DNA of 64,000 nt from Patescibacteria group bacterium (GCA_018824115.1 JAHJGY010000070.1:1632-65631), one strand, 5' to 3'. Shown: positions 5,056 to 53,153, counted from the stretch's first letter. The notes: a model not told the origin generated them from the letters alone. Made by a program: numbers and translations.

Positions 5056-6012
5056 ATGTTTGATATTGTTTCTATTGGCCACGCCACAGTCGATTTTTTT
5101 CTGGAGCTTGACCCTAAGATGGCGCCATTGATGTGGTCGGAAAAAAAGAAGGAATCCTTTGTTTGTTTAGATTTTGACGATAAAACCCCGGTTAAAAAGA
5201 CAAGTTGGTCTCTAGGTGGTAATGCGGTAAACAGCGGGATTGGGTTGTGTCGTTTAGGTGTTAATATAGCTCTGGTTTCGGAAGTGGGGCAAGATGAGTG
5301 GGGAGATTTAGTACGTCGGGTACTGCTAGAGGAGAAGCTGAAGCTGGATTATTTTAGGATTAATCCGGGACAGGTGACTGATTTGTCTGTGATCCTAATA
5401 CTTAAGGGTGAGCGGACGATCCTTGCTTATCACTACCCGCGTGATTATTGGTTTCCTGAAGAGTTTCCCAAAACAAAATGGATTTATCTAACCTCGCTGG
5501 GGAAGAAATTTCCCGCCTTTCATGACCAACTGATTCTCTTGTTGGAACAGACGGATATTCGGCTGGCTTATAATCCGGGGATGCATGAGTTATTAGTCGG
5601 AAGAGAGGCGAGTAGCAAGATAATTAAAAGATCCGAAGTATTGCTGGTAAATCGAGAGGAGGCAGGAGAATTAGTTGGCCAGAGGCCCTCGCAGGTGAAT
5701 GAGCAGTTATTGATTGACTTGCGTAATTTGGGGCCGGAGATAGTGGTAATTACAGACGGGAAAGATGGAAGCTTTGCCTACGATGGTAATAAGTTTTACC
5801 AACAAGGAGTTTGTTCGGCTGAACGAGTCGAAATGACTGGAGCCGGAGATTCTTTCTCGGCTGGGTTTCTAGCAGCCCTCACTCACGATAAGGGCATTAC
5901 GGAAGCGCTCAAGTGGGGAACAGTTAATAGCGCCTCGGTAATAGGTTTTGTTGGTTCTACGGAAGGGCTTCTTACGCTTGATGTTCTAGAAGAGAGAGTA
6001 AGTAGGTTATAG
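5056..6012 (+). CDS. PfkB-family carbohydrate kinase (ribokinase-like)
   Basis: C-terminal TGAGDSF anion-hole motif and the N-terminal GG dipeptide region; 318 aa. Confidence 0.8.
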   Translation: MFDIVSIGHATVDFFLELDPKMAPLMWSEKKKESFVCLDFDDKTPVKKTSWSLGGNAVNSGIGLCRLGVNIALVSEVGQDEWGDLVRRVLLEEKLKLDYFRINPGQVTDLSVILILKGERTILAYHYPRDYWFPEEFPKTKWIYLTSLGKKFPAFHDQLILLLEQTDIRLAYNPGMHELLVGREASSKIIKRSEVLLVNREEAGELVGQRPSQVNEQLLIDLRNLGPEIVVITDGKDGSFAYDGNKFYQQGVCSAERVEMTGAGDSFSAGFLAALTHDKGITEALKWGTVNSASVIGFVGSTEGLLTLDVLEERVSRL

Positions 6013-6275: not shown

Positions 6276-6490
6276 ATAGGTACAGAAAGTTTCTCTAGGC
6301 TTTCTGTTTTGGCACGTTAACAATCCTAGCTTTTCCAACCGGGAACTCGCGAAGAGTATTAATGGGGTCTAAGCTCCAAACTCTAAGTGAGAGGAGAATT
6401 GGGTTGATATTTTGTAGTTAGGTTTAGCTGGACCATTTAGTTTTTCCGTTTGGCGGGCACTGCCCGCCCCTAATCTCTGAGGAGGTAAGA

Positions 6491-8245
6491 ATGAGCAAGA
6501 ATCATACTTGGCTGGCCATTGGGCTGGCAGTAGCTCTCCTTGTTTGTCTGGCCGTGACTGTTACGGCCCAAACGAATGAGGGTGTCGTGGCATCGTGTTT
6601 GGTGCGCGTGGGTGAAGTGGACTATACCAACGTGCAGGATGCTGTGGACGCAGCCCGGCCGGGCGATGTAGTTAAAGTCGCCGGTTATTGTGCCGGGTCT
6701 GGGGTGTCAACCCAGTATTACATTACGGTTGACACTATGTTCCCCGAGCAGGAGGCAGTGGTTCTGCGGGCGTCCCCTGCAGTCCAAGTTATTAGAGGGC
6801 AAGGAGGGCGATTCAAGACCCTGTTTGCCGAGTCTGGGGTCGAGGTAAGTCATGCGGTAGTGATCGCCAAGTCCATTACCATCCGTGGCGGTTACGACCC
6901 GTCGGACTGGGAACAGTCCGACCCCGATGTCCACCCGGCCACGATAGATGCTGGGGGCGAAGCCTACGGCATTTACGTTACCGACGGTAACGTTGTCGTG
7001 GAGAATCTCCGGGTGACCGGTGGTTATGGGTGGAACGGCGCGGGAATGCGGGTTGAGGGCTGGTCCGCGAACTTGGTGATGAGCAACTGCGTGATTTTCG
7101 ATAACCATGCCCATTACGACGGCGGCGGACTGTACATCCTGGAAGATGATGAGGCTGAGTTGATCGGTAATACCATCTACTCCAACACCGCTGGCTACAG
7201 TGGCGGTGGGATGTCTCTCGTTCGGTCCAACGCTATGGTGATCAGTAACACCATCCGCTATAACCGTGCTGGCAATGGCGGTGGCGGGCTTGAGATGTGG
7301 TACAGCGATGCCGTGCTCCGCGGCAACGAGATCTTTTCTAACACATCTCTTGCTGATGGGGGAGGGGTGCTTCTCTACAATAGTGATGCTTTAGTGGAGG
7401 GTAATCGTATCCAGGGGAACGTTGCCGACCCCACGGAGTATGGGAAGGGTGGTGGCCTGGACCTATATGGTAGCGATGCCACCCTGCGTGGGAACGCGAT
7501 CGTTTCCAACGTTGCCTGGCTTGCAGGCGCTCTATACGTCTACGATAGTGTACCTGTATTCGAAAACAATTACCTTTGCAACCAGGCGACGATCACAACC
7601 TCCCATGAGACGTATCCCCACTGGCTTGTCCCGGTTGCCCTTGAACTTTCCCCGCTGACCGAGACAATCCTGGCGGGCAACAGCCAAGCCTATAGCGCAC
7701 GGGCTTTGGGTATCCATGACAACACCTGGTGCGCACGTGGAGTCGCCTACTCCACACCTGCAGAAGCAGGTGGCGTCTGGGAGAACGACATCTACGTTTC
7801 CGAAAATGCCGGGACCTGGACGGTCATCGGCAAGTACGAGGAGGTGAGCGGTTACGCCGAGCTGGTTGTGAAACCAATCCCCACCCACCTCGTCTACCTG
7901 CCGCTGGTGGCCCGGAACTATGAGGGACCTAGACTCGAGGCGGATCCGACTAGCCTCGAGTTTGTAGTTTCGGCAGCGGAGACGGAGGAGGCGGATGTGA
8001 CACTCCGCAATGTGGGGTCTGAGCTATTGGAGATTTGGCTCAGGAATAAGGAGGAAATCCCCGCCTGGTTTGATATAGATGCTCCGGGCACGACCTTGAT
8101 CCTGCCCGGAAGTTGGACGACCATGCAGGTTAGAGTTGATTCTGCCGGTATGGAAGTTGGCGAGTATAGATACACGCTTGCCATTGAGTCCAACGGGGGT
8201 AATGCGAGTGTCGCAGTGACGATGATTGTCGTCGCGACGCCCTAA
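6491..8245 (+). CDS. Secreted right-handed parallel beta-helix repeat protein (pectate-lyase-fold / adhesin-like)
   Basis: N-terminal signal peptide (MSKNHTWLAIGLAVALLVCLAVTVTAQ). Many repeats of the G-N-x-I/V-x-x-N pattern (GNTIYSNTAGYSGGG, SNTIRYNRAGNGGGG, GNEIFSNTSLADGGG, GNRIQGNV...). The gene is visibly much more GC-rich than its neighbours. Confidence 0.75.
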   Translation: MSKNHTWLAIGLAVALLVCLAVTVTAQTNEGVVASCLVRVGEVDYTNVQDAVDAARPGDVVKVAGYCAGSGVSTQYYITVDTMFPEQEAVVLRASPAVQVIRGQGGRFKTLFAESGVEVSHAVVIAKSITIRGGYDPSDWEQSDPDVHPATIDAGGEAYGIYVTDGNVVVENLRVTGGYGWNGAGMRVEGWSANLVMSNCVIFDNHAHYDGGGLYILEDDEAELIGNTIYSNTAGYSGGGMSLVRSNAMVISNTIRYNRAGNGGGGLEMWYSDAVLRGNEIFSNTSLADGGGVLLYNSDALVEGNRIQGNVADPTEYGKGGGLDLYGSDATLRGNAIVSNVAWLAGALYVYDSVPVFENNYLCNQATITTSHETYPHWLVPVALELSPLTETILAGNSQAYSARALGIHDNTWCARGVAYSTPAEAGGVWENDIYVSENAGTWTVIGKYEEVSGYAELVVKPIPTHLVYLPLVARNYEGPRLEADPTSLEFVVSAAETEEADVTLRNVGSELLEIWLRNKEEIPAWFDIDAPGTTLILPGSWTTMQVRVDSAGMEVGEYRYTLAIESNGGNASVAVTMIVVATP

Positions 8246-8260
8246 TCTCCAGTTAGCTTA

Positions 8261-8288
8261 GGAACAGGGGTTTCCCGGCCCCTGTTCC
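8261..8288 (+). terminator. Hairpin ggaacagggg-tttcccggc-ccctgttcc downstream of the beta-helix gene
   Basis: Perfect 10-bp inverted repeat. Confidence 0.4.
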
Positions 8289-8305
8289 CCAGAAACAAAC
8301 ATTAA

Positions 8306-8376
8306 GGCCCCGGAGGGGCCGCCGACAAAATGTCAGAACTAACGACATCGGCGGCCCCTTACCCGGGGCCTTTTGT
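8306..8376 (+). terminator. Strong nested GC hairpin followed by a T-run (rho-independent terminator)
   Basis: Outer stem ggccccgg...ccggggcc and inner stem ggccgccga...tcggcggcc, followed by ttttgtt. Confidence 0.6.
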
Positions 8377-8512
8377 TATTTACGGGTCCCCTTCTGGCCG
8401 TGGTAGCTCCGGGTGCTTCATGAGGGGTTTGTTTCTCTCTGGGTGGTGTGAGGGAGCGGCTATTTAACCCGGTTGTTGCCAGTAGGTTTCGGGCTGTGTT
8501 AACCTAATAAGA

Positions 8513-13112: not shown

Positions 13113-14135
13113 TTGAATATGTCGATATGTGTTTTCTCCCCGAGAAATAAAAGAGAGTTAATCTGTTTACTGGGAGGCCTTTTGGTTGTTATCTGCATGA
13201 TCGTCGCATTTTTTCTTATTGGGAATCCTCCACCTGCGGATGAAATTACTTGGGGAGTTAATTTTTCTCAAAAACATGCAGAGAATTTTGGGTTTAACTG
13301 GCAAGAAGTTTACTTGGCTTTTTTAGATGATCTGGGAGTAAATGACATCCGAGTGGCTACCTATTGGGATTTAATAGAGGACCAGAACGGAGAGTTTGTT
13401 TGGGATGATTTGGATTGGATAGTAGAGCAAACGGAGGAAAGGGAGGTTAACCTTATTCTGGCCGTGGGGATGAAAACATTAAGGTGGCCGGAATGTCATT
13501 TACCGGAGTGGGCACAGGGTTTAGGTAGGGAAGAACAACAGAGAGAAATCTTAGAATTAATTAGAGAGTTGGTGATGAGGTATAGGAATTCTTCGGCTTT
13601 AAAATATTGGCAGGTGGAAAATGAACCGTTCTTTCCCTATGGTTCTTGTCCTTGGGTTGACCGGTCGTTTTTACAGCGGGAGATTGATCTAGTGAGGACA
13701 CTGGATTCCGAACACAGAGTGCTAATTACCGATTCGGGGGAAGGGTCTTTTTGGATTTCTGCGGCGAAGATGGGTGATCTGGTTGGAACAACAATGTATA
13801 AGAAAGTATGGTTTAGGCAAGCCCGGATGTATTTTTCTTACCCCTTTCCGCCAGTTTTTTATTGGCGGAAAGCTTGGTTGGTGGAAAGACTATTTGGAGA
13901 TGAAGTAATTTGCGTTGAATTGCAAGCTGAGCCTTGGGGACCGTTGTTGATTTATGATTTATCAATGGAAGAGCAGAAAAAGACGATGAATATTGAGCAA
14001 TTCCACCGGATCGTTAATTTTGCAAGGTCGGTGGGGTTTAAAGAAAATTATTTCTGGGGAGCCGAGTGGTGGTATTGGTTAAGGGAAAACCGGAACGATT
14101 CGCAGATCTGGGATTCTGCGAAACTATTGTTCTAA
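13113..14135 (+). CDS. Membrane-anchored clan GH-A glycoside hydrolase (TIM-barrel, cellulase/mannanase-like)
   Basis: N-terminal TM; the WQVENEPFF catalytic NEP motif is typical of GH-A (GH5/GH113-like). Confidence 0.6.
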   Translation: MNMSICVFSPRNKRELICLLGGLLVVICMIVAFFLIGNPPPADEITWGVNFSQKHAENFGFNWQEVYLAFLDDLGVNDIRVATYWDLIEDQNGEFVWDDLDWIVEQTEEREVNLILAVGMKTLRWPECHLPEWAQGLGREEQQREILELIRELVMRYRNSSALKYWQVENEPFFPYGSCPWVDRSFLQREIDLVRTLDSEHRVLITDSGEGSFWISAAKMGDLVGTTMYKKVWFRQARMYFSYPFPPVFYWRKAWLVERLFGDEVICVELQAEPWGPLLIYDLSMEEQKKTMNIEQFHRIVNFARSVGFKENYFWGAEWWYWLRENRNDSQIWDSAKLLF

Positions 14136-16554: not shown

Positions 16555-16644
16555 GGAGGGGTGGCTGAGTGGCCCAAAGCGGCGGTTTGCTAAACCGTGA
16601 CGGTTAACATCCGTCCGTGGGTTCAAATCCCACCCCCTCCGCCA
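16555..16644 (+). tRNA. tRNA-Ser (anticodon GCU), type II with long variable arm, encoded CCA
   Basis: Acceptor GGAGGGG/CCCCTCC, anticodon loop tTGCTAa, long variable arm GTGACGGTTAACATCCGTCCG, T-loop GGTTCAAATCC, 3' GCCA. Confidence 0.85.
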
Positions 16645-48773: not shown

Positions 48774-50569
48774 TTTTTCTCCAGTGTTGCCTTTATCCTT
48801 CTTATTCCTTTCCCAACACTTTCTTCTTTAATAATTTTAAAATACCCTAATTCTGATGTATTAGCAACATGGGGTCCGCCACAGAGCTCTTTAGAAAAGT
48901 TATTAATTTTGTACATCGTCACCTGGTCAACTTCTTTGTATTTGTCTCTAAATAAAGCAATAGCTCCTTGCTTAACTGCCTCGTGGAATGTAGTTTCCAC
49001 TTTTGTTACCGAGAGGCCTTTTTGGATTTGCTGGTTAACAATTTTTTCTACTTTACGAATTTCTTTCGGGTCAAGTTTGCGATCAAAAGTAAAGTCGAAT
49101 CTCAATCGCTCTGGTACTAGGCTCTGACCAGCTTGTTTTACTTGACTACCGAGTACTTCTGTTAAAGCCTGGTGCATTAGGTGAGTTGCGGTATGCAGGG
49201 GTGCGATTTCTTCATTAGCGTATTCTTGCACTTTGCCGAATTTGCCTTCGGCTCCCTTGCGTGATAGGTCCTGGTGTTTTTTGTAGGCAGCTTGATAAGA
49301 TTCTTTGTCAATAATAATACCGTGGTTTTCAGCAATTTCTTTCTGTGTTTCTAGCGGCACGCCATAGGTGGCTTCGATGTCAAAGGCTATTTCACCGGGG
49401 AAGACCGCCGCTTTTCCTTTGCCCTGCCCAACGATAGTGGCTAAGCTTGCTTCGAGAACACCTAACCCTTTTTTAAGGGTCTTAAGGAAGTTTTCATGCT
49501 CGTTTTGTAGTACTGCAATAATATCTTGATCCTTGATTTCCGGGTAGAAAGACCCGTAGATGTTGGTGATTGATTGATGCAGTCGTTCGTAGAGATCTTC
49601 TAGCTTAATCTTTAAAAAGATCTGATGGGTAATTGCCCTGCGGATAAGTCGCCGTAAAATGTAACCTTCTCGTTTGTTCGATGGTACAACTCCGTCACCG
49701 ATGAGGAAAAAAGCGGCCCGTAAATGATCGGCGACGATTCTTACCGAACGGGTTTGCGCTGTGGTTAAAGAATCGATATTAAGCGTGGATGTGATTTCCG
49801 TGATTAAGGGTGAGAAGAGATCGGTCTCGTAGTTACTCTCCTTACTTTGTAAAACTGCGGCAAAACGTTCTAAGCCGGCCCCAGTGTCAACACTGAGAAA
49901 GGGAAGCTCCTCGAATTCGGTTTCGCTTTTACGATTATATTGCATAAAAACACCTGCGTTCCAAATTTCGTAGAAGCGGCCACATTCACAATTCGGATTG
50001 CATTCTATTCCGCAGGAATATTTTACTCCTCGATCGTACAAGACTTCGGTGCAGGGTCCACAGGGGCCAGTTGGCCCAGAGACCCAGAGATTTTCGGAGG
50101 CGGGGAGTTTAAGGATATGTTCGTCAGGTATTCCGATGGACTTCCAGTGGCTGATGGTTTCGGTATCGGCCGGAATGTAGTCATCGCCGGCAAAAACAGT
50201 GGCGTATAGTTTGTCTGGTTCGAGGTTAAACCCTTCCTGCGAAGTGAGCAGTTCCCAGGCGAGTTCAACCGCCATCTTTTTACCGTAATCTCCAATCGAC
50301 CAACTGCCAAACATTTCAAAAAAGGTATGGTGGTGAGGATCACCAACGCATTCAATGTCCTCTGTACGGACACACTTTTGAATGTTGGTTAATCGGGGGT
50401 GCGGCGGTTTTTCTTCGCCGGTGAAGTAGGGTTTAATTGGCGCCATGCCGGAGTTAACTAGGAGTAGCGTTGGGTCGTTTTTGGCTACCAAATTGGCCGA
50501 ACCAATATTTTGGTGATTATGCTTTTCGAAAAATTCAATAAAGCGTTTGCGGATTTCTGTGTGTGTCAT
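48770..50569 (-). CDS. alaS: Alanyl-tRNA synthetase (compact, 599 aa; catalytic and editing cores present, C-Ala domain absent)
   Basis: N-terminus FFEKHNH...NDPTLLLVNSGM...HHTFFEM; editing-domain HTATHLMHQAL and CGGPH zinc motifs. Confidence 0.9.
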   Translation of the reverse strand: MTHTEIRKRFIEFFEKHNHQNIGSANLVAKNDPTLLLVNSGMAPIKPYFTGEEKPPHPRLTNIQKCVRTEDIECVGDPHHHTFFEMFGSWSIGDYGKKMAVELAWELLTSQEGFNLEPDKLYATVFAGDDYIPADTETISHWKSIGIPDEHILKLPASENLWVSGPTGPCGPCTEVLYDRGVKYSCGIECNPNCECGRFYEIWNAGVFMQYNRKSETEFEELPFLSVDTGAGLERFAAVLQSKESNYETDLFSPLITEITSTLNIDSLTTAQTRSVRIVADHLRAAFFLIGDGVVPSNKREGYILRRLIRRAITHQIFLKIKLEDLYERLHQSITNIYGSFYPEIKDQDIIAVLQNEHENFLKTLKKGLGVLEASLATIVGQGKGKAAVFPGEIAFDIEATYGVPLETQKEIAENHGIIIDKESYQAAYKKHQDLSRKGAEGKFGKVQEYANEEIAPLHTATHLMHQALTEVLGSQVKQAGQSLVPERLRFDFTFDRKLDPKEIRKVEKIVNQQIQKGLSVTKVETTFHEAVKQGAIALFRDKYKEVDQVTMYKINNFSKELCGGPHVANTSELGYFKIIKEESVGKGIRRIKATLEKK

Positions 50570-50667
50570 TCAATGAGGCTCAAAAATTGCGAGTGTAGCG
50601 AAGCAATTTTAGTTAGCCGAATTAATCCGCCTAAATATGCCGTAGGCATTTTTGGCGTGATGATGTC

Positions 50668-50696
50668 ATTATACAAAGGGAATCGCAATGTTACAA
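50668..50696 (-). promoter_or_regulatory. alaS promoter (minus strand TTGTAA-17-TATAAT), ~95 nt leader
   Basis: Read on the reverse complement: ttgtaacattgcgattccctttgtataat. Confidence 0.4.
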
Positions 50697-50879
50697 GGAG
50701 AAAATAATGAAAAAGGTGGTATTTGGGGTTTTGGGAAGTGCGAAATGCGGGGCTAGGTGTCGGAAAATCGCTGATGCTGGCGCCCGCCTATTTTTGATTC
50801 TTTAAAAAGAATTTTGAGGCGGGCCGCTTGCTTTGCAGGAAAAGTAGTGCGGTAGAAGTTATTTTTCTGCAAAGCTTAA

Positions 50880-51590
50880 GTGAGTGGGATTAGTTGTGAT
50901 CCCAGCTCCTTTTTTCAAGCTTGCCTGCCAAGTCGGCAGGCTTGCCCGCCGGATTGGCGGGCAATGCTCGGTACCGGTTGGTGCCGAGGTTTGTTCTCCC
51001 ACCGCAGTATTGATGGGAGAAGAGTTGATAAGGAAGTTCATGAGGTCGGAGCTTTGACATGCCCACCTCGAGGGTTCCTTAGCCCTTTACGCCAGTCCGT
51101 CACCACAGGCCTTTTAAGGCGTTACCTGCGGTCCCAGGTCCTTGGGGAAGTCAGGTCCATTCCGATAATTATCGGAATCCCGCCCCGTTAGGGCGAGTCT
51201 TCCCAGAACAGCATTCCTGAGTTTGTCGTGGTTCCCCGATCTACAATCGAGGGCTGTTCCCACACCACTATTGCTAACGCCTCCTTTTGGACTTTAGGAG
51301 TACGCCCTGCGGCTAAGTGATGCCGTCACATTTTGCTCTCACGAGCGAGCTGTGGCCAGCTCTTGGTTCTGGAGATGTTGTCCCTTACGGAGCCTATTGG
51401 CTCCGTCCTTCACTACAAACAAGCCCAAAGGACTTGCTGGAAGGAAGGGATTCCCTTAGCTCCGAAAGGGGCTGCTACCCGGGCCCACCATGGGCTCGAC
51501 AGGATGCAGTCTTTTTGAGATTTTGGCTTGCGTTCATCCCGATTCGCGGGATACGCCTTACCCCGAATCCCACGGGGCTACAAATGTTCT
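50880..51590. ncRNA. Candidate large structured non-coding RNA (~700 nt, GC-rich, hairpin-dense, no ORF); identity unknown
   Basis: A series of perfect hairpins (gcctgcc-aagtc-ggcaggc; ttgcccgcc-gga-ttggcgggcaa; ttccgataat/tatcggaa; tctccca...tgggaga; ggagcc-tatt-ggctcc); only short GC-biased ORFs without an SD sequence. Confidence 0.3.
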
Positions 51591-51885
51591 AAAAGAAACC
51601 GGAGAATATGACTAGCCATATTCCGGCGATCGCCAGGATGCATCCGGCGAGTATGAGTACCCTCCGGAGTTTACGTCCCTGGCGCAGATGGTGGAATCCT
51701 CGATCCTCAAATCCTAGAGAGATTCCCTCATCGATCGCTGCCTTTAGGCCTAGGACTAGTCCTAAGCCTAACAGGGCGAGCCCGCCACCGGCGGCGATAC
51801 CGAGTTCTTGGTTGTCGGTGACAGCTGTTATCAGCGCCCCGGCGATTAGGCCGAGGATCAGCCAAAGAGCCGCTAGCTTAGACAT
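51589..51885 (-). CDS. Small membrane protein (2-3 TM, Gly/Ala/Leu-rich), GC-rich
   Basis: ORF; start trimmed to the internal M (MSKLAALWLILG) to give an 8-nt overlap with the upstream CSD gene. Confidence 0.45.
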   Translation of the reverse strand: MSKLAALWLILGLIAGALITAVTDNQELGIAAGGGLALLGLGLVLGLKAAIDEGISLGFEDRGFHHLRQGRKLRRVLILAGCILAIAGIWLVIFSGFF

Positions 51886-52558
51886 CGTTACCTCCCTTGA
51901 AAAGCACTTCGAGTGCCCGCTCGACCCAGAGGTCGATGTTGCGGACATCTAGCCTTTCTTTCCCCCCTAGAATTACTGGGGGATAGGGTTTTCCGTCATC
52001 GACCACTCGCCACGGGGCGGGGTACTCGGCGGGGTGGAAGAACCAGTAAGCGGCGCCGTTTTCCAGGACGCGCTCATCAGTTCTCCAGATTTCCCCAGAC
52101 TTGGCCGTCCAAGCCGTGCTTCCGACGGGGTATGGCTTGGCTGCCACCCAATGATCTCCTTTGCGGAAAATGAGATAGTCGTCATTTTCCATCATAAGCT
52201 CCCACCCGCGGTGAGCAAAAGCTGCCTTGATACCTTTGACAATTTCTTCTTCTCCGAGAGCGAGGGCGATTTCACTAGCTCTGTGGGGTGGGACCTCGAT
52301 AGTTCCGTTTGCATCACGGGGGAGGTTTCTCGGCCTCACATTGTGAGCAACGGCCCCATTCCGGCCATGGCCAACTGTGAAGGTCACTTGCGTGCCCTTC
52401 AGGTTATCTTCGGCGACAATTGCTCGCACACCACCGATGTGGTGGTGGTTTACGAAGATATCGGGCCCATCATCTTGGCTGATGAACCCGTAACCGGATT
52501 TGCCCCGGCGGTCGGGGCGGTCCCTTGTGAAAAAAACCTTAATGGTTCCGGTAGGCAT
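51878..52558 (-). CDS. Cold-shock-domain fusion protein (N-terminal CSD + ~160-aa uncharacterised C-terminal domain), GC-rich
   Basis: GTIKVFFTRDRPDRRGKSGYGFISQDDGPDIFVNHHHI resembles the CspA RNP1/RNP2 fold (KGFGFI...VFVH). Confidence 0.65.
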   Translation of the reverse strand: MPTGTIKVFFTRDRPDRRGKSGYGFISQDDGPDIFVNHHHIGGVRAIVAEDNLKGTQVTFTVGHGRNGAVAHNVRPRNLPRDANGTIEVPPHRASEIALALGEEEIVKGIKAAFAHRGWELMMENDDYLIFRKGDHWVAAKPYPVGSTAWTAKSGEIWRTDERVLENGAAYWFFHPAEYPAPWRVVDDGKPYPPVILGGKERLDVRNIDLWVERALEVLFKGGNDV

Positions 52559-53153
52559 CTTGCACCTCCTTTTTAGGTGTGGCGGCGGTTCCGAGCTGCC
52601 AACTTGGAAGATGCCAACGCCGCGATTGGTTTTCCCTGCGCAAGGCAGATAAGTGCAGAGAAAACGTTAACCAGTAAAAACTAAGGACTTATCGTCCACC
52701 TCCTTTCCCTGCCTCTGGCAGGACTAAAAAAAACAAATACGCCCCACGATTGGGGAGTAAAAGAAAAGCAATGTCAAATGTCAAAACGGCATTACTTCTC
52801 ATCTACTCCTCAATACTAGAGGGTATACGCAAGAAGGGGGGCTGTTCTTTGTTGATGGTATTAACGTGCAAAGCTCCACGTAACTACCTAAAGTATAGCA
52901 TAAAACTATCGGATTGCAAGTTGAATAAGCTTATAGGGGGCTGATGTGGAGGCGATTAGTTAGTAGGGGCGATTTGCTTTCACCCTGCGTAAAGGTCAGT
53001 GAGGGGACTTTTTATGATACGGCGCGGTATAAATTCCGCTACTACACCAACTGAATTGGGTATGTCTAAAGAGTTCTATCCGACTGTTTTTTCTATAAAT
53101 CCTTTAATTAGAGCGGTTTTCTCGGGGCGGGTAGTAGCTAAGGGTGCTAGTTC

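Follow-up and report, generated by a model that had tools for sequence, protein, structure and literature searches.

The locus described here lies in a 64,000-nt stretch of DNA from a Patescibacteria group bacterium (GCA_018824115.1, JAHJGY010000070.1:1632-65631), referred to below as the window, and all positions are counted from its first nucleotide. On the minus strand the neighbourhood consists, in order, of ftsK, the gene of an HTH protein, a 97-aa ORF, ytxH, the gene of a cold-shock domain (CSD) protein, the gene of a 98-aa protein, a segment of 711 nt (50880-51590, here called the tail), alaS and an ftsA-like gene (Table 1). A first-pass annotation had placed the tail directly downstream of a minus-strand cassette of CSD and membrane-protein genes and upstream of the alaS promoter, and both the gene order and the promoter site agree with this. 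Among species representatives, the closest relatives of the AlaRS are those of a Patescibacteria MAG (74% identity) and of candidate division CPR3 bacterium 4484_211 (69%). For a streamlined CPR genome it is unusual to retain 0.7 kb of non-coding sequence just ahead of the essential gene for an aminoacyl-tRNA synthetase.

Table 1. Features of the ytxH-alaS region, listed from the alaS side (window positions; strand left empty where none is assigned)
Feature	Position	Strand	Basis or remark
alaS	50569-48770	-	gene call
alaS promoter-like site, TTGTAA-17-TATAAT	50668..50696	-	~100 nt ahead of alaS, which starts at 50569
AT-rich nested hairpin outside the GC island	50779-50828		inverted repeat I2; between tail and alaS promoter
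AT-rich 14-bp hairpin outside the GC island	50830-50875		between tail and alaS promoter
Stem-loop followed by T6	stem 50885-50904, T6 50910-50915	+	terminator scan and fold of 50770-50919
Four back-to-back stem-loops	50923-50941, 50942-50964, 50967-50988, 50994-51021		strongest structure signal, 50923..51021
Perfect 8-bp palindromic hairpin, ATTCCGAT-AATT-ATCGGAAT	51159-51178		hairpin count
Hairpin CGCCC-CGTTA-GGGCG	51181-51195		adjoins the 51159-51178 hairpin
Middle hairpins	51347-51362, 51387-51406		hairpin listing
Middle hairpin with two G-U pairs	51418-51438	- only	hairpin listing
Hairpin AGCUCC-GAAA-GGGGCU, GNRA loop, U-G pair	51458-51473	+ only	hairpin listing
Hairpin ATCCCG-ATTCG-CGGGAT	51536..51552		~40 nt past the stop codon of the membrane-protein gene
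98-aa orphan hydrophobic, membrane-type protein (by eye)	51589..51885	-	public gene call; second cassette gene
226-aa protein, N-terminal CSD and orphan C-terminal 130 aa	51878..52558	-	first cassette gene
Cassette 5' leader and right island edge	52559..52725	-	nhmmer, alignment A3, GC drop
ytxH	53504-53154	-	gene call

The GC content climbs at ~50880 and drops at ~52725 (~52700-52750), which delimits a block of ~1.85 kb with 55-60% GC in a host of ~43% GC. The tail had been described as GC-rich against AT-rich flanks; this is correct for the left flank, but on the right the CSD and membrane-protein genes are equally GC-rich (0.55-0.60). Because these genes share the composition of the tail, high GC is here the mark of a foreign island and not of an RNA gene. 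A CPR3 relative (L004) keeps the order HTH protein, small ORF, ytxH and alaS with a ytxH-alaS gap of 583 nt, and nothing in this spacer resembles the island. The block is probably a recently acquired GC-rich cassette that a Patescibacterium of the CPR3 lineage carries between ytxH and alaS, and in which a leader, the CSD protein, the small membrane protein and the tail would follow one another on the minus strand. The island contains no replication initiator, integrase or transposase, and the best candidates for inverted or direct repeats framing it are 72-73% matches, within chance.

The window sequence matches contig JAHIZE010000040.1 of MAG GCA_018814785.1, which is also from a Patescibacteria group bacterium. 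Further copies are found on a JGI/ENA contig (L168/L174) that carries ytxH, the island and alaS, and on a Logan contig (L002) with the island, alaS and ftsA. All copies are 99.97-100% identical, with 0-1 nt difference over 3.6-5 kb; the lone difference is in the CSD gene (position 52405) and there is none in the tail. To judge from these sequences, the island appears to belong to one groundwater bacterial population only. The abrupt change in composition at both island edges would be expected if the GC-rich/AT-rich junction were an artefact of a chimeric contig, and the Logan contigs of three runs (SRR2544004, SRR6514274 and SRR27458548) all stop at 52566, the continuing contig beginning at 52590. 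The same arrangement was, however, assembled independently in the NCBI MAG, the JGI/ENA contig and the Logan contig at the identity given above, and since these assemblies agree a chimera, which we regard as very improbable indeed, is for practical purposes ruled out. The break at 52566-52590 instead indicates a branch of the assembly graph inside the conserved leader and Shine-Dalgarno region, and because three runs break at this one reproducible point, other genomic contexts in these communities probably share the leader sequence. The shared break also led us to reject the idea that the Logan contig represents a transcript.

The first gene of the cassette encodes a 226-aa protein with a Pfam match to CSD (4.8e-7). 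A search of a 5.8-billion-protein index with the whole protein returned only the protein itself, and exhaustive HMMER searches of 1.84 billion representatives found relatives for residues 1-96 (the CSD) only. The C-terminus had no explanatory match in PDB, Pfam, PADLOC or PHROG, and a single-sequence AlphaFold model of the protein (pLDDT 48) was too poor for a fold search. When JGI metagenomes were scanned with the N-terminus of the family, the same element and one truncated contig were recovered, while the corresponding scan of IMG/VR gave only generic cold-shock proteins. The N-terminal domain defines a sparse family (window 51878-52672; L083-L087, L169) with the consensus ...G-T-I-K-V-F-F-T-R-E-R-P...G-F-G-F-I...D-G-P-D-V-F-V-H..., followed by unrelated C-termini of 147-629 aa. 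One locus (L085) has two tandem CSD genes, one of them with a weak match to the S1/CSD-TOTE conflict system. Such a pattern is reminiscent of conflict or mobile modules that evolve fast, and this sparsely sampled CSD family, with its interchangeable C-termini and its structured leaders, which are conserved and in some cases repeated, may merit study as a mobile or conflict-system module. The ~110 nt upstream of the CSD ATG are conserved at the DNA level with L086, L085 and L169 (nhmmer, alignment A3). A CSD gene with a conserved leader common to the members of its family recalls the 5' UTRs of the cspA type, and CSD proteins act on structured RNA; the tail differs from leaders of this type in that it lies 3' of the operon. 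At E<=10, Rfam had no match to either the CSD leader (52559-52672) or the tail.

The second gene has strong GC3 periodicity, and a homologue search with its 98-aa product found only the protein itself. Palindromes also occur inside this ORF at 51620-51771: ATTCCGGCGATCGCCAGGAT (which contains GCGATCGC), GTACCCTCCGGAGTTTAC and TTAGGCCTAGGACTAGTCCTAAGCCTAA. Folding windows covering 51600-51824 have z-scores of -2.2 to -4.0, so that the hairpin tendency reaches into the coding part of the island.

Structured non-coding DNA is also found beside other members of the CSD family, whose non-coding flanks have fold z-scores of -5.9 to -10.2. The most informative of these loci is L086 (GCA_964567975.1, CAZMOW010000104.1), an 8.5-kb contig of orphan genes, one of which encodes a protein with a Csx3-like (ring-nuclease) domain. 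It contains three copies of a leader module of 200-350 nt (2385-2728, 5521-5868 and 7757-8005; 76-94% identity). Two copies precede large orphan genes, one of them the 629-aa CSD-family member, and the third follows that CSD gene. Fold z-scores on the coding strand are negative along nearly the entire length of the contig. By analogy, hairpin-dense intergenic modules look like a property of the type of element from which the cassette came; the L086 modules have no sequence similarity to the 711-nt tail, and the likeness is one of architecture only. A 737-nt hairpin-rich tail in L086 was considered as a direct analogue and rejected, as it starts with the third copy of the leader module and its sequence is unlike that of the tail. 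The HIP1 motif (GCGATCGC) was likewise considered as a clue to a cyanobacterial donor and set aside; the island and L086 each have a single copy, which is no enrichment.

The tail had been judged to contain no convincing ORF, and this is borne out. There are stop codons in all six frames (3-12 per frame), and the longest ORFs, of 103 and 91 aa and both on the plus strand, have no Pfam match. Differences in GC between codon phases are 0.05-0.20 in the tail, compared with 0.25-0.37 in the neighbouring CSD and membrane-protein genes. A query with the six concatenated frame translations brought up no protein relative, but it is a weak test that also missed a called 60-aa ORF of its own sequence. 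An alternative genetic code was considered for the plus-strand frame that starts at 50880, which has 3 stops (2 TGA and 1 TAG), and rejected, since this frame lacks phase periodicity and its translation looks implausible. Neither phase bias, nor an open frame, nor protein similarity, within the reach of the weak six-frame query, marks the tail as a pseudogene or an unannotated gene.

The description of the tail as hairpin-dense is confirmed, and every inverted repeat that had been listed was found where it had been placed: these are the four back-to-back stem-loops, the hairpins at 51159-51178, 51181-51195 and 51387-51406, and cctcgagg (51067-51074), which is a bare 8-nt palindrome. We counted non-overlapping perfect Watson-Crick hairpins and compared them with dinucleotide shuffles. 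The tail has 8 with stems of at least 6 bp (1.46 expected), 5 with stems of at least 7 bp (0.36 expected) and 4 with stems of at least 8 bp (0.08 expected); in each class the observed count was matched by 0 of 500 shuffles. Among 711-nt tiles of the window the tail has the top hairpin density. The predicted minimum free energy (MFE) of the whole segment has a z-score of -4.3 on the plus strand and -7.3 on the minus strand (20 shuffles each), and z-scores of 150-nt windows reach -7.5 (at 50850-50999), compared with a mean of -0.11 (sd 1.14) in 74 windows of host background. The signal is unevenly distributed. Windows within 50775-51074 are the most extreme, at -5 to -7.6 on both strands, and those within 51075-51600 are moderate, at -1.1 to -3.7. 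The 150 nt from 50880 to 51029, which include the four back-to-back stem-loops, reach -8.2 on the minus and -6.0 on the plus strand (200 shuffles). The adjacent pair of AT-rich hairpins (50779..50875) has z-scores of -4.0 (minus) and -5.7 (plus).

These counts bear on one account of the tail, namely that it is functionless carried-over DNA, either a third gene that has decayed or intergenic sequence of the donor, whose hairpins would be terminators or leaders from the donor and would serve no purpose in the present host. The island is a singleton and its genes are orphans, contigs of the donor type have hairpin-dense intergenic and even structured coding regions, and a recent arrival, which is to be presumed as CPR genomes normally purge such DNA, is in keeping with the unameliorated GC. 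A decayed gene, however, might be expected to leave some codon-phase signal or protein similarity; the former does not exceed 0.20 and the six-frame query, a weak test, gave none of the latter. Moreover, a more than 5-fold excess of hairpins is unexplained unless they were functional in the donor. We consider this account unlikely, though one to be reckoned with.

As for the shape of the structure, ~70% of the MFE pairs predicted in the tail are local, with a span of 40 nt or less, which makes the structure a string of separate hairpins. The sole long-range pair of arms (51115-51130 with 51545-51560; 13 of 16 matches, 81% complementary) is by our estimate within chance for 700 nt. The tail is thus predicted to be a chain of at least 12 independent stem-loops, mostly perfect Watson-Crick, rather than one globally folded RNA. 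A choice of strand from G-U as opposed to C-A pairs was attempted and dropped because individual hairpins disagree and the global MFEs are nearly equal (-295 kcal/mol for the plus and -300 for the minus strand). Pairing at 50885, 50967 and 51458 favours the plus strand (in the 50967-50988 stem, for example, a U-G wobble on the plus strand is a C-A mismatch on the minus strand), but pairing in the hairpin at 51418 favours the minus strand. The share of G-U pairs is 12% and 9% on the two strands, with similar z-scores, and each strand of the tail has a GNRA-capped stem.

The tail had been put forward as a large structured RNA of unknown class. Part of this description stands, as the structure potential is strong and there is no coding signal; no named class was matched. 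The search of Rfam with Infernal cmscan that had been recommended as a check was carried out and assigned no family to 50880-51590. At the gathering score, the sole Rfam 15 match in the whole window is a tRNA-Ser (16555-16641), and with the threshold relaxed to E<=10 the region 50500-53000 gave only chance matches to miRNA, lncRNA and RybB-terminator models, all far below the gathering score. ARAGORN reported nothing in the tail. The Rfam and ARAGORN results agree with the earlier impression that RNase P, tmRNA, SRP, 6S and T-box RNAs are not represented in the tail. The suggested kinship to GOLLD, ROOL, OLE or HEARO finds no support: these families and raiA are included in Rfam, and neither they at the gathering score or at E<=10, nor raiA, nor any remaining Rfam 15 family has a covariance-model match to the tail. 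A group II intron was rejected, as the plus strand begins with GUGAG rather than GUGYG and none of the intron models reached E<=10. Two relatives (L003 and L004) likewise have no T-box or other Rfam family at E<=0.01. Nor does the tail look like an integron attC site; the island has no integrase and GTTAGGG (51187-51193) misfits, by eye, the GTTRRRY core.

Homologues of the tail were also sought at the nucleotide level. There was no blastn match among 50,697 phage and 72,556 plasmid records, and nhmmer and blastn searches of 180 fetched loci returned only the tail itself. Four exact-pattern scans of IMG/VR gave only isolated chance matches of 18-22 nt; one of these is an exact match to the 18-mer of the 51159-51178 hairpin, which has no similarity in its flanks. 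With blastn, the 711 nt match only themselves and their own palindromes within the window. A REP/BIME or MITE-like repeat is therefore rejected, there being no second copy in the 64 kb and no terminal repeats.

A new large structured ncRNA, co-transcribed with the cassette or processed from its transcript and working with the CSD protein, is thus a reading with points on both sides. The z-scores are negative across the whole 711 nt, the segment is free of ORFs and of coding periodicity, it follows directly on the gene of an RNA/ssDNA-binding OB-fold protein, and GNRA-capped stems are available on either strand. It is common for large bacterial ncRNAs, GOLLD and ROOL among them, to be carried by mobile or prophage DNA, and carriage on an island of this kind counts in favour of the reading. 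Like GOLLD, ROOL, HEARO and OLE, which are 300-800 nt long and have functions that are unknown or only recently found, the tail is ORF-free, has a GC content above that of its host and sits on what is, as often with these RNAs, acquired DNA. Those RNAs differ in that their cores contain multi-way junctions, are conserved and covary across many genomes, whereas the tail has neither a covariance-model match nor homologues in the collections searched, and its structure consists mainly of local perfect hairpins whose antisense folds equally well. No promoter is predicted for the tail itself, L004 lacks the segment at the syntenic site, and the GC-richness is a property of the whole acquired island. 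Taken together we find a discrete RNA of this kind distinctly unlikely. A stronger form of the proposal, in which the tail founds a new class of ~700-nt RNAs carried on small mobile conflict-type cassettes and functionally paired with a variant CSD protein whose C-terminus evolves fast, we consider improbable; its corollary, that the tail seems unique on account of poor sampling of CPR-associated elements in deep groundwater, is improbable to the same degree. The only other copies of the tail are essentially identical and, as far as their sequences tell, come from the same population, and they offer no covariation in favour of a new class. Were the tail to prove a discrete RNA that works with the CSD protein, microbial dark matter would have yielded a new RNA-protein system.

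A role at the level of DNA must also be weighed, since the two strands are indistinguishable and such a role is equally compatible with the sequence. The hairpins would then be a relic or a working part of a small mobile replicon, such as a single-strand origin, a packaging signal or a recombination site, with the CSD/OB-fold protein as its ssDNA-binding partner. The stems are nearly all perfect Watson-Crick palindromes of equal stability on both strands, and the island is foreign and missing in a relative. The CSD fold binds ssDNA, which also counts in favour of this proposal, as does the existence of hairpin arrays of similar size in the intergenic region of filamentous phages and the single-strand origins (sso) of plasmids. 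The resemblance to filamentous-phage and rolling-circle systems has two parts, in that their non-coding arrays of imperfect palindromes measure a few hundred nt and adjoin the gene of an OB-fold ssDNA-binding protein and genes of small membrane proteins. Here, however, no replication initiator or assembly gene accompanies the array, there is no integrase or transposase, repeats at the island ends do not exceed chance, and the phage and plasmid records searched contain nothing similar. We would place a DNA-level function on the unlikely side, though well within consideration.

Transcription signals were examined in the tail and around it. Neither strand has a predicted sigma-70-like promoter in the tail or next to it, and between 51589 and alaS the minus strand has no hairpin followed by a U-tract. 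This includes the hairpin nearest to the membrane-protein gene (51536..51552), which has no U-tract after it on this strand. The terminator-like nested hairpin that had been reported between the tail and alaS does exist (50779-50828), but it too lacks a U-tract on the minus strand. The sole canonical terminator-like site of the area is on the plus strand, at 50885-50915, and weaker plus-strand sites were returned by the terminator scan at 50967-50988 and 51347-51362. Since no minus-strand intrinsic terminator follows the membrane-protein gene, read-through is probable, and on the simplest reading the cassette transcript would run into the tail; and since no minus-strand hairpin has a U-tract, any terminator function on that strand must be non-canonical.

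A small plus-strand ORF lies in the same area, divergent from alaS: 32 aa (50707-50805, MKKVVFGVLGSAKCGARCRKIADAGARLFLIL), with a strong Shine-Dalgarno sequence (AAGGAG) 6 nt before it. Three hairpins and the terminator at 50885-50915 lie downstream of this ORF, and no plus-strand promoter is predicted for it within 50695-50915.

The window contains a second GC-rich island (6400-8512; 56-60% GC), which encodes a 584-aa secreted protein with right-handed beta-helix and Ig-like features (6491-8245). Its GC-rich tail (8246-8512) has a z-score of -4.8 and closes with a long nested hairpin and, after it, a T-rich run. In this genome, the combination of high GC, absence of ORFs and dense hairpins would therefore be a mark of horizontally acquired islands and not of RNA genes. 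If the tail studied here is merely a hairpin array on acquired DNA, its main value is this caution.

The tail is real as a feature and statistically striking, and it is best classed as a non-coding tail, rich in hairpins, that belongs to a singleton cassette of horizontal origin. As to what it does, our tentative preference, held with somewhat less than even confidence, is for a donor-derived intergenic or 3' hairpin array that would be read through from the cassette operon and would act in RNA stability, termination or insulation. The hairpin excess and the fold z-scores, far beyond shuffles and host background, argue for such an array, as do the structured flanks of other CSD-family genes and the hairpin tail of the second island. 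We infer transcription of the tail, the strand used and its stabilising or insulating role. In the transcript, the hairpins may form barriers to 3'-to-5' exonucleases in the manner of intercistronic hairpins of the REP/BIME type, and they may also be pause sites or sites of U-tract-less termination. The outcome would be that the cassette mRNA is stabilised and the essential alaS gene is insulated and retains its own promoter. The densest predicted cluster (50775-51030) sits exactly at the boundary of the tail with alaS and abuts the alaS promoter, and with the plus-strand terminator it contains, it could serve as a terminator zone for both directions. Among the points against the hairpin array, ~700 nt far exceeds what termination or stabilisation would require, all the more so in a CPR genome that is streamlined, and the z-scores of 51075-51600 are only moderate.

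REP/BIME arrays of enterobacteria provide the nearest parallel to an array of this kind. They too are clusters of stable stem-loops in untranslated DNA 3' of an operon, without a U-tract and foldable from both strands, and hairpins of the REP/BIME type are thought to block 3' exonucleases and to modulate read-through. REP elements, however, belong to a family that recurs hundreds of times per genome, whereas every hairpin of the tail is unique in the window and the tail, at 700 nt, is far longer.

Some structured sequence was also seen outside the island. Just beyond its right edge, on the minus strand, a promoter-like sequence with an extended TG (TTGCAA-16-TATACT, 52919..52892) is followed by ~160 nt at whose end stands a clean hairpin with a T8 terminator; the terminator hairpin is at 52755..52742 and its T-run extends to ~52727. 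The segment 52727-52919 has minus-strand z-scores of -4.4 to -6.2, and its sole Rfam match is a chance terminator match to RybB. A 37-aa hydrophobic small ORF (MRSNAVLTFDIAFLLLPNRGAYLFFLVLPEAGKGGGR) is found on the same strand at 52802-52689, and the motif TTGACATTTGACATT occurs both in this segment and in the ytxH-alaS spacer of L004 (1370-1403). Candidate identities for the segment are a small RNA, a leader and the gene of a small protein, and it may also be the ancestral leader of alaS. The strongest structural outlier of the host background is at 13800-13950 (z of about -5), where a perfect hairpin, CTTTCCGCCAGTTTTTTATTGGCGGAAAG, lies within a 340-aa ORF (13113-14135).
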